Assembly (NCBI GenBank): GCA_944331715.1
Contig: CALVIP010000003.1
Span: 1 to 62,796, forward strand
Reading direction: 5' to 3'
Origin: an uncultured Bacilli bacterium
GTDB lineage: Bacteria; Bacillota_I; Bacilli_A; RF39; UBA660
Length of the DNA: 62,796 nucleotides
Numbering within the stretch: position 1 is the stretch's first letter; each line of letters starts with the position of its first letter. Position numbers and translations under genes: made by a program. The notes beneath the pieces are model-generated. The model saw nothing but the letters and a program-made list of their open reading frames with translations, had not been told where the DNA came from and searched no databases. Positions 1,375-21,891 of this stretch are shown here, piece by piece.

Positions 1375-1529
1375 ATGATTTTCTAGTAGAATAATTTATT
1401 ACTCGCGGGCCATCTACAAGCGAGATAATCTGCAGTGTAGAATAATTTATTACTCGCATCCATCTACAAGCGAGAACATCTCCGTAAAAAGAAAATCATC
1501 TTACATATATTATATGAAGTTTCCCTCAT
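1375..1529 (-). ncRNA. Array C: two pseudoknot repeats (orphan type III antitoxin-like RNA) with leader hairpin and closing stem
   Basis: Repeats at 1386-1425 and 1437-1475; minus strand CUCGC-UU-GUAGA-UGG(AU/CCC)-GCGAG-UAAUAAAUUAU-UCUAC; 10-bp inverted repeat 1375-1384/1490-1499; leader AUGAGG-GAAA-CUUCAU at 1514-1529. Confidence 0.65.
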
Positions 1530-1542
1530 CTAATACGTTTTA

Positions 1543-17450: not shown

Positions 17451-17969
17451 TTATATATCTCTAAATAAATAGACATTTTCGTTTAAAGTTTGGTTAGGAA
17501 GAGTAAAGTCTCTACTACCTACTAATTCTCCACCCATATGTTTATAGAAACTATTGGCATTAGTATTAAGAGCAAGACAGCCAACAATCATACTATTAAA
17601 TCCCATTTTCTTAACTTCATCACAAGCTTTTTCAAAGAGTGTTCTACCATATCCTCTATGTTTAACTTCATCAAGTAAATATAAGGCCTGTAATTCTCCT
17701 ATATCTTTATAATTAGAATCTTTTGATTTACACACTCTAAGAACTCCTACATATTTATCATCTGCTTTTAAAAGAAATGATTTATCAAATTCTTTATTTA
17801 TATCTTTTTTCTTTCGTTCTATAGCTATATTTATTTCAGAATCTGTACCGATTAATTCTAAAAACTCTGCATTAACTATTCCTTTATAAGTCTCTTGCCA
17901 AGATTTAGTATTTATTTTAACATAATCACTTACATTGTTAGTATTTAACTCTTCTATAATACAATTCAC
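17451..17969 (-). CDS. GNAT acetyltransferase
   Basis: LYLLDEVKHRGYG acetyl-CoA motif, ANSFYKHMGG. Confidence 0.88.
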   Translation of the reverse strand: MNCIIEELNTNNVSDYVKINTKSWQETYKGIVNAEFLELIGTDSEINIAIERKKKDINKEFDKSFLLKADDKYVGVLRVCKSKDSNYKDIGELQALYLLDEVKHRGYGRTLFEKACDEVKKMGFNSMIVGCLALNTNANSFYKHMGGELVGSRDFTLPNQTLNENVYLFRDI

Positions 17970-19714
17970 TATAGTTTAACCTCTTCTTTTAATAGCGTAA
18001 TAAATTCATCTATTGTAACTGTACTAGTATCTTTTTCACCATGTCTTCTATAACTAATAGTATTATCAGTCTTTTCTTTATCTCCAAGTATTAGTGTATA
18101 GTTAATTTTTCTAGTTTGAGCTTCTCTTAATCTATAACCTAATTTTTCATTACGGTTATCTAACTCTACTCTAATACCATTTTTCTTTAACTCTTCATAT
18201 ACTTTACTAGCATATTCTCCTTGATATTCACTAGATACTGGTATAACTACTGCCTGAACAGGATTTAACCATAAAGGAAGATTACCTTTAGTCTCTTCAA
18301 GTAGGAAAGCAATAAATCTATCAAGAGAACCTAGTATTGCTCTATGAATAACTACTGGTCTAGCTTTATTTCCATCTTTATCAATATAGGTTAGTTCAAA
18401 TCTTTCAGGTAGTTGATAATCTAATTGTACAGTTGAAAGTGTTACATCATGACCAATAGCACTTTTAACTTGAACATCAAGTTTTGGTCCATAGAAAGCT
18501 GCTTCTCCTTCTGCTTCATAGAAGTCTGCTCCTATTTCTTCTAGAACTTCTCTTAGTTCTTGTTCACTTCTTTCCCATAGCTCATCATTACCAAAGTATT
18601 TATCTTTATTATTCTTATCTCTTAAAGAAAGTCTAAAACTATAATCTTTAAAGCCAAAGTCTTTATAAACATCAAGTATTAAATCAATAACACCTTTAAA
18701 CTCTTCTTTAATTTGTTCATTAGTACAGAAGATATGAGAATCATTTTGAGTAAAGGCTCTTGTTCTTTCAATACCACATAATGCTCCAGAAGCTTCATAT
18801 CTAAAGTCATTTGCAATCTCGGCAATACGTAGTGGTAAATCTCTATATGAATGAAGTGAATTTTGATACATCATCATATGATGAGGACAATTCATTGGTC
18901 TTAACACATATGCTTCATTATCAAGTTCCATAGCAGGAAACATATCATCTTTATAGTGATCCCAGTGTCCACTAGTTTTATATAAATCTACACTGCCAAG
19001 TGAAGGTGTCATAACATGTTTATAACCATGTTTTATTTCTTTATCAGTAATATAATCAACTAGTGTACGTCTAACAAAGAAACCATTTGGTAACCACATA
19101 GGAAGTCCTTTACCTACTAAATCAGAAAACATAAATATACCAAGTTCTTTACCTAATTTACGATGATCTCTTTCTCTAGCTTCCTCTAGCATTTCTAAAT
19201 GTTTATTTAAATCTTCTTCAGTCTCATAACAAACTCCATAAATACGTTGTAACATTTTATTTTTAGAGTCTCCTTTAAAGTATGCACCACTTACTCTAAG
19301 TAATTTAAAGTGTCTTAACTCTTTAGTAGATTCTACATGAGGTCCACGACAAAGATCAGTAAAGTCTCCTTGAGTATAGCATGTAATTACTTCATCATCA
19401 CTCATATTATTAATTAAATCTATTTTATAAGGGTCATCTTTAAATTTATCAAGTGCTTCTTCTCTAGTTAATTCATGACGAATGATTTTTTTATTACCTT
19501 TAGCAATTTTTTTCATTTCTTTTTCTATTACAGGTAAATCATCATCTGTTAAAGTCTTATCTCCTAAATCAATATCATAATAGAATCCATCTTCTATTAC
19601 AGGTCCTACCCAGAACTTTGCCTCCGGATATAACTTCTTAACTGCTTCTGCTAGTAAATGCGCACAAGAATGATTAAGTGGCATTAATTTTTCACTTTCT
19701 TTAATATTTATCAT
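17969..19714 (-). CDS. thrS: Threonyl-tRNA synthetase (short form without N-terminal TGS domain)
   Basis: NHSCAHLLA, DLCRGPH, LRPMNCPHH, GEAAFYGPK, PVVIHRA. Confidence 0.97.
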   Translation of the reverse strand: MINIKESEKLMPLNHSCAHLLAEAVKKLYPEAKFWVGPVIEDGFYYDIDLGDKTLTDDDLPVIEKEMKKIAKGNKKIIRHELTREEALDKFKDDPYKIDLINNMSDDEVITCYTQGDFTDLCRGPHVESTKELRHFKLLRVSGAYFKGDSKNKMLQRIYGVCYETEEDLNKHLEMLEEARERDHRKLGKELGIFMFSDLVGKGLPMWLPNGFFVRRTLVDYITDKEIKHGYKHVMTPSLGSVDLYKTSGHWDHYKDDMFPAMELDNEAYVLRPMNCPHHMMMYQNSLHSYRDLPLRIAEIANDFRYEASGALCGIERTRAFTQNDSHIFCTNEQIKEEFKGVIDLILDVYKDFGFKDYSFRLSLRDKNNKDKYFGNDELWERSEQELREVLEEIGADFYEAEGEAAFYGPKLDVQVKSAIGHDVTLSTVQLDYQLPERFELTYIDKDGNKARPVVIHRAILGSLDRFIAFLLEETKGNLPLWLNPVQAVVIPVSSEYQGEYASKVYEELKKNGIRVELDNRNEKLGYRLREAQTRKINYTLILGDKEKTDNTISYRRHGEKDTSTVTIDEFITLLKEEVKL

Positions 19715-20239: not shown

Positions 20240-20450
20240 AATAAAAAGGATGATATCACTAGGAGTGCCTTACACTACACGATACCATCCTTTTTTAACT
20301 TAATTTAGATAACGGCACTAACCGGAATTACTTTGCATAACTCTACTCATTAAGGTAGTAATAAAAGAGCTTTTCTTAACTTTCACCAACCGTTAAGTCT
20401 CTAAGATTAAAAGGATTCTTTTACCAAGTCCCTAACTAATAACGTATTTA
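20240..20450 (-). promoter_or_regulatory. T-box riboswitch (Thr)
   Basis: AGAGA..GGUGAAA motifs, ACU/ACC specifier at 20354-20359, GGAUGGUAUCGUG T-box at 20278-20290, terminator; TTGACA promoter at 20481-20486. Confidence 0.8.
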
Positions 20451-20537
20451 CAACTATTATTTTACTACAAATTATAAAGATGTCAAATTATTTTTATAAT
20501 AAAACATATTTTCTATTAAAAAATGTATCTTGTTCGA

Positions 20538-20566
20538 TTGACACGATATAATACATATGTTATTCT
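20538..20566 (+). promoter_or_regulatory. Promoter of type I TA locus 1 toxin mRNA
   Basis: TTGACA-17-TATTCT. Confidence 0.7.
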
Positions 20567-20637
20567 TTAAGCAGGAATACCTAGTATGGGTGTTTTGCCT
20601 CTTTCAAAACTCTAATATTCAGGGGGAGAAAGGGGAA

Positions 20638-20712
20638 ATGTCTATGAGTAAGAAAGATTTTCTAATTGCATCATTAGTAATAATAATTATACTTCTGATT
20701 ATTTATAGATAG
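20638..20712 (+). CDS. Type I toxin-like hydrophobic peptide, locus 1 (22-24 aa)
   Basis: (MS)MSKKDFLIASLVIIIILLIIYR*; RBS AAAGGGGA; flanked by AGGAATACCTAGT (20573-20585) and ACTAGGTATTCCT (20789-20801). Confidence 0.75.
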   Translation: MSMSKKDFLIASLVIIIILLIIYR

Positions 20713-20865
20713 TAAAACGCCCTATTACAACTTTGTAATTAGGGTGTCTATCAAAAAACTTTTTTTTGAGGTAACACCCAAATGGCAAACTAGGTATTCC
20801 TCTTTTTTATAATATGTAAATTCTCTTTACATATTCATATTATCATAAATAATTAATTTTATCAA
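20713..20865 (-). ncRNA. Convergent antisense antitoxin RNA and its promoter, locus 1
   Basis: TTGATA-17-TAATAT (20837-20865), 5' hairpin AATATGTAAA/TTTACATATT, ends at hairpin CACCCTAATTACAAAGTTGTAATAGGGCG-TTTT. Confidence 0.65.
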
Positions 20866-20899
20866 GATATTAATCGTTGCAAAAAAGTATCATTTAATC

Positions 20900-21108
20900 T
20901 TTGCAACAGTATAAACATATGATATACTTTAAATGCAGTAAATGAGTGACATCTCATATAAAGATAAAAGAGGTTCACACTACTCCTTTAAAAAGTGTAT
21001 ATAAAGAGGTTGACGTTACTCCTAAAAAACGTATAAAGGTTCACACTATTCCTATAAAAGTGCATAAAAGTATAAGGGCGATACCTCTATTGGTATTACC
21101 CTATTTTT
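20900..21108 (+). ncRNA. Array A: promoter, leader, three degenerate ToxI-like pseudoknot repeats and terminator; no toxin gene follows
   Basis: TTTGCA-17-TATACT; leader ATGAGTGACATCTCAT (20942-20957); repeats 20964-21000, 21001-21032, 21033-21063; terminator 21075-21108. Confidence 0.7.
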
Positions 21109-21150
21109 ATTATTAAAAAGTAGAAATCATCAAAAAAGTAACATTTTTTC

Positions 21151-21369
21151 TTTACAACAATATAATCTTATGATATACTTTAGATGTATTAAATGAGTGA
21201 TACCTCATATAATAACAAAAGTCGGAATTCCCTTGCCACAGTAGGGAGCTAACAAAAGTCGGAATTCCCTTGCCATAGTAGGGAGCTAACAAAAGTCGGA
21301 ATTCCCTTGCCACAGTAGGGAGCTAAAAAACATGGGCGATTTTCATTTAGAAAGTCGTCCTTTTCTTTT
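21151..21369 (+). ncRNA. toxI: Array B: ToxI/AbiQ-type antitoxin RNA, 3 x 37-nt repeats, with promoter, leader and terminator
   Basis: TTTACA-17-TATACT; leader ATGAGTGATACCTCAT (21193-21208); AACAAAAGTCGGAATTCCCTTGCCA(C/T)AGTAGGGAGCT at 21214, 21251, 21288; terminator 21334-21369; toxN directly downstream. Confidence 0.9.
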
Positions 21370-21390: not shown

Positions 21391-21891
21391 ATGAAAACAC
21401 TTAAAATATACTATATTGATGAAAATTATATTAAATATTTAAGAAAATTTGATAAGATAGTACCGTATAATAAGACTCATACAAGACCATATATTGGTGT
21501 TGTATATGAATATAATGGGATTAATTATTTTGCACCTTTATCTAGTCCAAAACAAAAACATATAACAATGAATGAAAATGCTCTAGATATATTTAAAATC
21601 AATGATGGAATTTGGGGAATAGTTAATATTAATAATATGATTCCTGCTCCTACCTATTGTTTGACTGAAGTACTTCCACAAGTAAAAGATGAAAAGTACA
21701 GAAACTTAATATTAAATCAAACTAATTATTTAAATAGACATAAGTATAAATTACTATCTAAAGTTAAACAGTTTAGATTACGTTATGATAAAGGGTATTT
21801 ATCTAGCAGATTAAGAAAAAGATGTTGCAACTTTAAATTATTAGAAGAAAAATGTATGGAATATGAAAACTTAATACTAGAAACTAGTTAA
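21391..21891 (+). CDS. toxN: Type III TA endoribonuclease toxin, ToxN/AbiQ family
   Basis: IYYIDENYIKYLRKFD, RPYIGVV, YFAPLSSPK, NINNMIP, CCNFKLLEEKC; canonical repeats-terminator-toxin layout. Confidence 0.92.
   Translation: MKTLKIYYIDENYIKYLRKFDKIVPYNKTHTRPYIGVVYEYNGINYFAPLSSPKQKHITMNENALDIFKINDGIWGIVNINNMIPAPTYCLTEVLPQVKDEKYRNLILNQTNYLNRHKYKLLSKVKQFRLRYDKGYLSSRLRKRCCNFKLLEEKCMEYENLILETS

Follow-up and report, generated by a model that had tools for sequence, protein, structure and literature searches.

A ToxI-like array, probably orphaned by removal of its toxin gene, stacked on a complete toxIN system of another repeat family

The DNA analysed here (the window) is a stretch of 62,796 nucleotides from an uncultured bacterium, whose genome is a small chicken-gut Bacilli metagenome-assembled genome near Candidatus Onthousia (1.16 Mb in 108 contigs, 87.6% complete). 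Within it, an array of three repeats, array A, immediately precedes a complete type III toxin-antitoxin system, toxIN-B. Array A is probably a genuine ToxI of a second type of toxIN system, that of the toxin ToxN-A, orphaned by the removal of toxN-A while its own unit stayed in place and is probably still transcribed. Most likely, it would be the leftover of a toxin replacement. This reading draws on homology, synteny, covariation and the match between toxin clade and repeat family: sister genomes have A-type repeats before toxN-A at this site, repeat family goes with toxin clade, and ToxN-A is missing from the assembly of the window, which together point to array A as an orphaned cognate ToxI. 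The A-repeat family has previously been uncharacterised as ToxI. The toxIN system itself is known; what sets this variant apart is that the orphan array is stacked on a complete toxIN system of another repeat family, and that sister genomes show the cognate toxin allele, reciprocal hybrids and deletion junctions. Among the type III reviews and surveys searched, which describe phage pseudo-ToxI, none mentions bacterial orphan or mixed ToxI arrays.

The array A unit is self-contained (20901-21108): behind a promoter with an extended -10 come a short leader hairpin, three repeats of 31-36 nt and a terminator. Its parts, and those of the array B unit that follows it, are listed below.

20901-20928, + strand: predicted promoter P_A, with -35 TTGCAA, a 16-nt spacer and a TG-extended -10 TATACT (consensus match)
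20940-20961, + strand: leader with a 5-bp hairpin, AUGAG-N6-CUCAU, then AUAA (-4.4 kcal/mol)
20966-21002, + strand: array A repeat 1, with stem 1 AGG 20971-73/CCU 20985-87 and stem 2 ACACU 20977-81/AGUGU 20994-98
21003-21034, + strand: array A repeat 2, a compensatory variant, with stem 1 AGG 21007-09/CCU 21021-23 and stem 2 ACGUU 21013-17/AACGU 21028-32
21035-21070, + strand: array A repeat 3 and closing AAAAG linker, with stem 1 AGG 21037-39/CCU 21051-53 and stem 2 CACU 21044-47/AGUG 21059-62
21075-21108, + strand: terminator A, an imperfect 10-bp hairpin (21075-21102) and a T-run (21104-21108)
21151-21179, + strand: predicted promoter P_B, TTTACA-17-TATACT with TG, in a second copy of the P_A module
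21213-21330, + strand: array B, 37 nt x 3.2, adjacent to ToxN-B (Tandem Repeats Finder, 96% matches)
21334-21360, + strand: terminator B, between array B and toxN-B (-15.3 kcal/mol)
21391-21891, + strand: toxN-B, intact, 166 aa (PF13958, E 2.6e-41; PDB 4ATO, E 1e-22)

Tandem Repeats Finder places array A at 20967-21059 (period 36, 2.7 copies, 73% matches, score 91). The 1.16-Mb assembly contains the repeat core AGGTTSACRYTAYTCCT exactly three times, at 20971, 21007 and 21037, all within array A, and has no match to the reversed control pattern of this core. In unit length and copy number (three units of 31-36 nt, 2.7 copies), array A agrees with the ToxI antitoxins of the toxIN family, which are tandem arrays of about 31-62-nt repeats in 1.9-5.6 copies (Blower et al., 2012; PMC3401426). 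As in other ToxI loci, a promoter predicted by its consensus match stands at the start of the array, and the same P_A sequence is found in the first unit of loci L014, L015 and L021, but is altered in L009 and L010. Terminator A folds at -13.9 kcal/mol (z -4.9), and was not called by a consensus scan because of one C.A mismatch. The promoter and terminator that a preliminary description had assigned to array A are thus both recovered as sequence predictions (TTGCAA-16-TATACT with TG; hairpin and T-run at 21075-21108), and its statement that the next element is an array and not an ORF also holds, since array B follows with its own promoter at 21151-21179. Where a ToxI terminator is ordinarily followed by a ToxN-family gene, the window therefore has a second promoter and array B; for A-type repeats, the usual order of terminator and ToxN gene is found in L014, L015, L016 and L021, and in the family members L061-L071.

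The promoter and leader of array B are 85-87% identical to those of array A over 82 nt. The array A leader is also present at array B (21191-21212) and at a further array C (about 1510-1531, minus strand), and leaders of the AUGAG/CUCAU type recur in L033, L063, L075 and L080; this leader may serve ToxI precursors as a conserved hairpin for 5' stabilisation or recognition. In the region of array C (window 1375-1531, minus strand), a third copy of promoter and leader heads a different, two-repeat array. An Rfam search over array A (E up to 10) returned only chance-level matches below the gathering scores. Assignment of array A as a cptIN or tenpIN antitoxin was considered and rejected, as the cognate toxins match only Pfam ToxN_toxin and PDB ToxN/AbiQ, and the repeats measure 31-36 nt in contrast to about 40-57 nt.

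Each array A repeat is predicted from its sequence to form an H-type pseudoknot, as the repeats of ToxI do, on the grounds of covariation. In agreement with the preliminary description, stem 1 is AGG/CCU throughout, while stem 2 reads ACACU/AGUGU in repeat 1, ACGUU/AACGU in repeat 2 and CACU/AGUG in repeat 3. The covariation of stem 2 described earlier is therefore confirmed, in a helix that at 4-5 bp is one pair longer than was then stated; repeat 2 differs from repeats 1 and 3 by two compensatory pairs (A-U to G-C and C-G to U-A). Across the A family the layout is the same: an AAAG linker, NGG, a loop that includes one strand of stem 2 (the 5' strand), CCN, an A-run, and the 3' strand of stem 2. 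The stem-2 variants found between and within arrays are ACAC/GUGU, ACGU/ACGU, UCAC/GUGA, UCGU/ACGA, CCAU/AUGG, UCAU/AUGA, ACGC/GCGU and CGGU/GCCG, and distant A-clade systems (L033, L061-65, L068, L069, L071, L077, L079-83) have the same architecture with different stem-2 sequences.

Covariation was evaluated in a hand-parsed, stems-only alignment of 18 distinct repeats against 500 shuffles, used in place of a whole-repeat MAFFT alignment that was structurally inconsistent. Pairing cells reached 88.2% (73.2+-1.9% in shuffles), cells changed on both sides numbered 23 (8.3+-2.1 in shuffles), and the covariation score was 0.404 (0.156 in shuffles), none of these values being reached in any of the 500 shuffles; the alignment was parsed by hand from the expected structure and its columns were chosen by hand, which biases the count towards that structure. 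Slid registers of the same alignment pair at 28-37%. Compensatory changes are present in four of the five stem-2 pairs, and in stem 1 the inner GG/CC is invariant and the outer pair is canonical in 13 of the 18 repeats. Despite the hand-chosen columns, the variety of perfectly complementary 4-6-mers points to a real stem 2 and is hard to explain otherwise. The covariance analysis in related genomes, suggested earlier as a check, thus extends stem covariation to distant homologues (0/500 shuffles).

A loop-shuffle control that admitted G-U pairs and two registers still scored 4/4 in 17 of 32 shuffled units, and was replaced by Watson-Crick-only helix lengths and the covariation count. With Watson-Crick pairs, stem 2 is at least 4 bp long in 33 of 34 cognate repeats and in 23 of the 26 repeats that are orphan, foreign or next to a pseudogene; damage to stem 2 is accordingly seen in 3/26 orphan or foreign repeats versus 1/34 cognate repeats, and in no cognate repeat when G-U pairs are allowed. 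A single array A repeat folded alone has the stability of its shuffles (z +0.25), and folding of a single repeat and of the whole transcript gave no significant stability for the repeats. Such a weak folding signal is expected of tiny pseudoknots that are stabilised by protein, and the case for the structure is therefore made by covariation, not by thermodynamics.

The three repeats of array A differ from one another. The core and stems of repeat 2 are invariant across all three-repeat A arrays found, apart from one copy with an additional A in the A-run, and the variants of repeats 1, 2 and 3 all occur in arrays that still adjoin toxN-A, so their heterogeneity is not post-orphaning drift. The preliminary description had called the repeats degenerate, with structure conserved despite drift. 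Conservation of the structure is upheld by the covariation, but the repeats of the window equal those of functional arrays and show no decay, and their differences would predate any orphaning. In Onthousia arrays, it is the middle repeat that has the alternative stem 2 (window 21007-21034; ACGU/ACGU versus ACAC/GUGU), and likewise in the distant array of L063/L064 (about 676-709), where the middle repeat has UCGU/ACGA versus UCAC/GUGA. This heterogeneity of neighbouring repeats looks maintained, perhaps against mispairing of adjacent units or to limit recombination.

The toxin to which A-type repeats belong is ToxN-A (P0001), a protein of 179 aa that is 41-45% identical to ToxN-B. Three A-type repeats and terminator A lie directly upstream of toxN-A in L014, L015 and L021, between the same flanking genes as in the window. 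By contrast with a complete type III system, in which toxin and antitoxin are encoded together, the assembly of the window (87.6% complete) contains no gene of the ToxN-A clade, the best match to ToxN-A being ToxN-B itself at 45%. Array B is the cognate ToxI of ToxN-B. The assembly (G000) has four ToxN genes, none of the A type, and each of the three further paralogues (C16:17916-18395, C1:48380-48862 and C47:2-445; L001, L002 and L004) has its own, non-A array.

ToxN matches are found in 68 of 401 genomes of the order to which the window belongs. The arrays beside them are nearly all B-like, and A-family repeats are found beside the few toxins that cluster with ToxN-A, as in L033. Five homologues found by protein identity (48-57% to ToxN-A) also have A-family repeats (L061-65, L068, L069, L071), and human-gut contigs have them beside A-clade toxins (L077, L079-L083); the distant A-clade toxins of gut Bacilli are 44-57% identical to ToxN-A. 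A maximum-likelihood tree built from 38 ToxN proteins separates the A-clade from the rest with 100/99 support. The toxin-proximal repeats are of the A family in 8/8 A-clade toxins of this tree, and none of the 30 non-A-clade ToxN has an A-only array. Because toxin clade and repeat family vary together, we infer different specificities, such that ToxI-A would be specific for ToxN-A and not for ToxN-B. The earlier description of a toxin-less array in front of a working toxIN, and its proposal of a retained antitoxin of probably different specificity, are well supported by this comparison: in sister genomes, A repeats occupy the toxin-proximal position before a separate ToxN clade at this site, and that toxin is missing from the assembled 87.6% of the genome of the window. 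Searches farther afield gave no match to the exact sequence of repeat 2 in JGI metagenomes and no array of A-type patterns in viral contigs, where one isolated single-copy match (L074) was taken as chance; a phage pseudo-ToxI of the A family did not come to light in these contigs.

Several of these relatives have arrangements of their own. L063 carries a tandem pair of B-like and A-like toxIN. In two human-gut metagenome contigs, L076 and L084, two A-family repeats are followed by three or four B-family repeats before a ToxN-B-like gene, whose product is 61-62% identical to ToxN-B. Downstream, L084 has a single-repeat, toxin-less A unit where L063 has an intact A-clade toxIN. In the Faecalibacillus faecis-like contigs L061 and L062, an A-family toxIN adjoins a MobL relaxase gene, suggesting that the A family is also present on mobilisable elements.

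Related genomes were searched with ToxN-B and then with the array motif, and the same chromosomal site, bounded by the thrS-side flank and a polysaccharide-deacetylase-like gene, was located in 10 other assemblies. The arrangements at this site are as follows, with each unit in parentheses.

Window: (P_A, leader, A x3, terminator A) (P_B, leader, B x3, terminator B) toxN-B
L010: as the window; P_A with a changed -35 and an 11-nt deletion, leader stem broken, stem 2 of repeat 3 changed from GUG to GUA
L009: P_A lesions as in L010, leader stem and repeat 3 unchanged; array A contracted to one repeat
L011: B unit (three B repeats) and toxN-B only
L013: fused P_A/P_B, a single B repeat and a broken toxN-B
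L014 and L021: (P_A, leader, A x1 with stem 2 broken, terminator A) (P_B, leader, B x1 and A x3, terminator A) toxN-A
L015: as L014 and L021, but B x2 and A x3
L016: (P, leader, A x1, terminator A) toxN-A, with TGA at codon 3 under code 11
L024: (P_B, leader, degenerate B x1 and A x3, terminator A), toxin-less
L029: chimeric B/A repeat and A x2, terminator A, toxin-less

At least six independent assemblies have the A unit and B unit in tandem, one of them a circular long-read metagenome-assembled genome (L021, OZ006970.1). L024 and L029 have one common deletion junction, at which the T-run of terminator A is joined to the T-run after toxN. Broken toxins stand beside persisting arrays in L013, L016, L033 and L082, and arrays are often contracted to one repeat; toxN-B of L013 has lost its start and has a 120-nt deletion (about 3000 and 3300), the TGA of the L016 toxN-A is at 2400-2408, and the L033 toxin is truncated (1495-1851). 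Between toxN-A and toxN-B loci, homology resumes at window position 21817, so that only the last 75 nt of toxN-B and the downstream DNA are common to the toxN-A alleles. These 75 nt are the apparent right-hand recombination boundary. The 3' end of toxN in the window matches the toxN-A alleles exactly, but the toxN-B copy in L012 is almost the same here. The flanks of the window are 97.9% and 96.7% identical to those of the toxN-A genome L015, versus 92.7% to those of L010 with the same architecture; architecture therefore does not track strain relatedness, as recombination predicts. In mixed arrays, the foreign-family repeats are always promoter-proximal and the cognate repeats toxin-proximal, both where B and A repeats precede toxN-A (L014, L015, L021, L081/83) and where A and B repeats precede a ToxN-B-like gene (L076/84); the window follows the same order, its A unit coming before its B unit. 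Junctions are located at the shared AAAAG linker, the duplicated promoter-leader, the terminator T-runs and the shared toxN 3' end.

Regarding the order of events, we infer that toxN-A was removed in the lineage of the window and that the promoter-array-terminator unit remained. By one route, a whole toxIN-B cassette would have replaced toxN-A, with the right crossover in the shared 75 nt of the toxN 3' end. By another, toxN-A would have been deleted out of a tandem toxIN-A/toxIN-B pair, a route that is equally possible given that tandem pairs of B-like and A-like toxIN exist (L063). At the site as a whole, repeated replacement or deletion of a segment comprising (part of) the array, the terminator and the toxin may have left the resident upstream array each time. 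In toxin-antitoxin systems, the toxin is stable and the antitoxin short-lived, and cells that lose the antitoxin are killed. Applied to this site, such logic would explain why only toxin-first losses are seen, both as clean deletions (L024, L029) and as broken toxins beside arrays (L013, L016, L033, L082).

In the window, every stem of array A is equal to those of functional arrays, and the consensus promoter is kept. By its sequence, the orphan unit looks fully competent, with an intact promoter, stems as in toxN-A-paired arrays and a usable terminator, so that array A is probably transcribed into pseudoknot units; these would probably bind, and be processed by, ToxN-A. Although most orphan arrays are intact, some orphan promoters are damaged and some orphans erode: L009 and L010 have the mutated -35 and the 11-nt deletion, L009 is down to one repeat, L010 has a stem-breaking change, and stem 2 is broken in the extra upstream A unit of L014, L015 and L021. 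The intactness of array A in the window would fit recent orphaning and continued selection equally well.

Continued selection could mean that the orphan is kept as anti-addiction immunity against ToxN-A, a possible but rather unlikely reading, in which a standing ToxI-A would neutralise incoming ToxN-A or permit toxin-allele switching at this site without post-segregational killing. On this view, toxIN-A circulates in these gut populations, both as alleles and on mobile elements. Roles of this kind have been discussed for orphan type II antitoxins (PMC7192599; PMC7354431), and the intact promoter, stems and terminator of the window would suit such a role, as would the toxin-less or foreign A repeats of several independent lineages, human-gut contigs among them (L024, L029, L075, L078), the two A repeats placed with three or four B repeats before a ToxN-B-like gene in L076/L084, the reciprocal hybrids with B and A repeats before toxN-A (L014, L015, L021, L081/83), and the A-family toxIN adjoining a MobL relaxase gene in Faecalibacillus-like contigs. 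However, several orphans are visibly eroding through promoter lesions, contraction and stem-breaking changes, L011 and L013 are entirely without array A, and recency together with survivorship bias can explain persistence. It is similarly tentative, and on balance doubtful, that orphan and mixed-family arrays form a maintained "dual-immunity" layer, in which repeats of the other family, retained ahead of the cognate repeats, enable swaps of ToxN-A and ToxN-B cassettes and tolerance of incoming toxIN-A. If this were true, swaps would take place at a hot spot made up of the shared promoter-leader module and the shared toxN 3' end, incoming toxIN-A elements would be tolerated without post-segregational killing, and populations could cycle abortive-infection specificities against phages.

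An action of array A on ToxN-B, as an extra substrate, decoy or buffer via its A-rich linkers or as a read-through booster, is improbable. AAAAG-type linkers are common to both repeat families, hybrid precursors exist that one toxin must process, and terminator A is weaker than the toxN-A-proximal copy of L014 (-13.9 versus -19.9 kcal/mol), which makes some read-through into the B unit plausible; but toxIN-B stands alone with three B repeats in L011, and the proximal repeat family strictly tracks the toxin clade. ToxN-B has no need of array A because array B supplies its antitoxin, and A-rich sites are everywhere in a low-G+C genome, making a dedicated decoy unnecessary. The earlier idea of a substrate or decoy for the neighbouring ToxN thus found no backing, toxIN-B occurring without array A in L011. 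Quite improbable, too, is that array A is not orphaned and its cognate ToxN-A acts in trans from the unassembled 12% or from a plasmid. The assembly is indeed 87.6% complete in 108 contigs, the genome already has four ToxN paralogues and array A is intact; against this, the type III toxins known so far are cis-encoded and lie behind their array (PMC3401426), every A-clade toxin found has its own proximal A array, and the assembly contains no other A-type repeats. Hardly credible is a reading in which array A is not an RNA gene at all, but either a repetitive protein of 56 aa, from the open frame that spans it (20946-21116), or an assembly artefact that stacks strain variants, which can collapse in assemblies of metagenome-derived genomes. 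The coding reading was rejected, as the 56-aa ORF is without a match in Pfam, has its GTG start inside the leader hairpin, and is not kept as a frame in the one-repeat array of L009; the artefact was rejected because the A/B tandem recurs in at least six independent assemblies, among them the circular long-read L021 (OZ006970.1).

Among known systems, the nearest toxin to both ToxN-A (E 3e-19) and ToxN-B (E 1e-22) is that of the ToxIN system of Bacillus thuringiensis pAW63 (PDB 4ATO), followed for both by Pectobacterium/E. coli ToxN and AbiQ. The layout of pAW63 ToxIN is the same: a promoter, about three 34-37-nt tandem repeats, a terminator and the toxin. Its antitoxin, ToxI_Bt, as read from pAW63, shares the arrangement of stem 1, loop, stem 1, linker and stem 2, and has the GUAG motif before stem 2 in common with array B. 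In contrast, no toxin follows array A, whose repeats resemble ToxI_Bt in general architecture but not in sequence, and which has an A-run between stem 1 and stem 2 in addition to that between units. [quoted passage not shown] The ToxI of an E. coli plasmid, of the Pectobacterium type, has a 3-bp stem 1, and its loop UCAC/UCGC pairs with a downstream GUGA/GCGA after GUUAA; this pseudoknot is close to the A-family consensus GG-UUC-UCAC-AU-CC-GUUAAAA-GUGA. Since the toxin that goes with the A family is closer to ToxN_Bt than to ToxN_Pa, the likeness of the RNA to the Pectobacterium type may be convergent. The earlier assignment of array A to the Pectobacterium type and array B to the B. thuringiensis type accordingly survives as a loose resemblance of RNA motifs, but not for the toxins, both of which are closest to B. 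thuringiensis ToxN 4ATO.

Toxin-less ToxI repeats have a precedent in phages: in escape mutants of phage TE, pseudo-ToxI or captured ToxI repeats can, when expressed by themselves, neutralise a ToxN made elsewhere (PMC5086642). Unlike these repeats, which serve counter-defence, array A is chromosomal and located at an ancestral toxIN site. Orphan antitoxins of types II and IV are retained after toxin loss, possibly as scars or as immunity against related toxins on mobile elements (PMC7192599; PMC7354431); those are proteins, whereas array A is an RNA.

The locus and its relatives show that toxIN systems behave as modular, recombining alleles: two toxin clades, each paired with a pseudoknot family of its own, trade places at a single chromosomal site, and antitoxin arrays outlast their toxins. 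Mixed-family arrays arise repeatedly, in chicken-gut Onthousia-like genomes and in human-gut contigs, so that nature supplies both matched and mismatched ToxI/ToxN pairs with which to test RNA-protein specificity, as well as a concrete, testable case of an RNA "addiction scar" or anti-addiction element. The new ToxI sequence family, with its clear covariation, could seed an RNA family model. For annotation, the locus is a warning that a ToxI-like array beside a ToxN gene is not necessarily the antitoxin of that gene.

Further observations concern the surroundings of the site and the other systems of the genome. The array of the C47 paralogue (CGGAAUACCCUUGCCAAAGUAGGGAC...) closely resembles array B, and cross-talk between the C47 and window systems is thus conceivable. 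Upstream of array A, a 51-aa ORF (window 20557-20712, + strand) has a hydrophobic C-terminal stretch (MSMSKKDFLIASLVIIIILLIIYR from an internal ATG) and a hairpin after it, and is flanked by promoter-like sites up to about 20866; judged by these features, ORF and hairpin look like a type I toxin-like module. The block with this ORF and the array A unit (about 20512-21135) are both missing from L011, suggesting a small island of toxin-antitoxin modules after thrS. The only real Rfam match nearby is a T-box leader (window 20300-20449, - strand; RF00230, E 2.5e-7, cut at the searched edge), which sits upstream of the threonyl-tRNA synthetase gene thrS (17969-19714).
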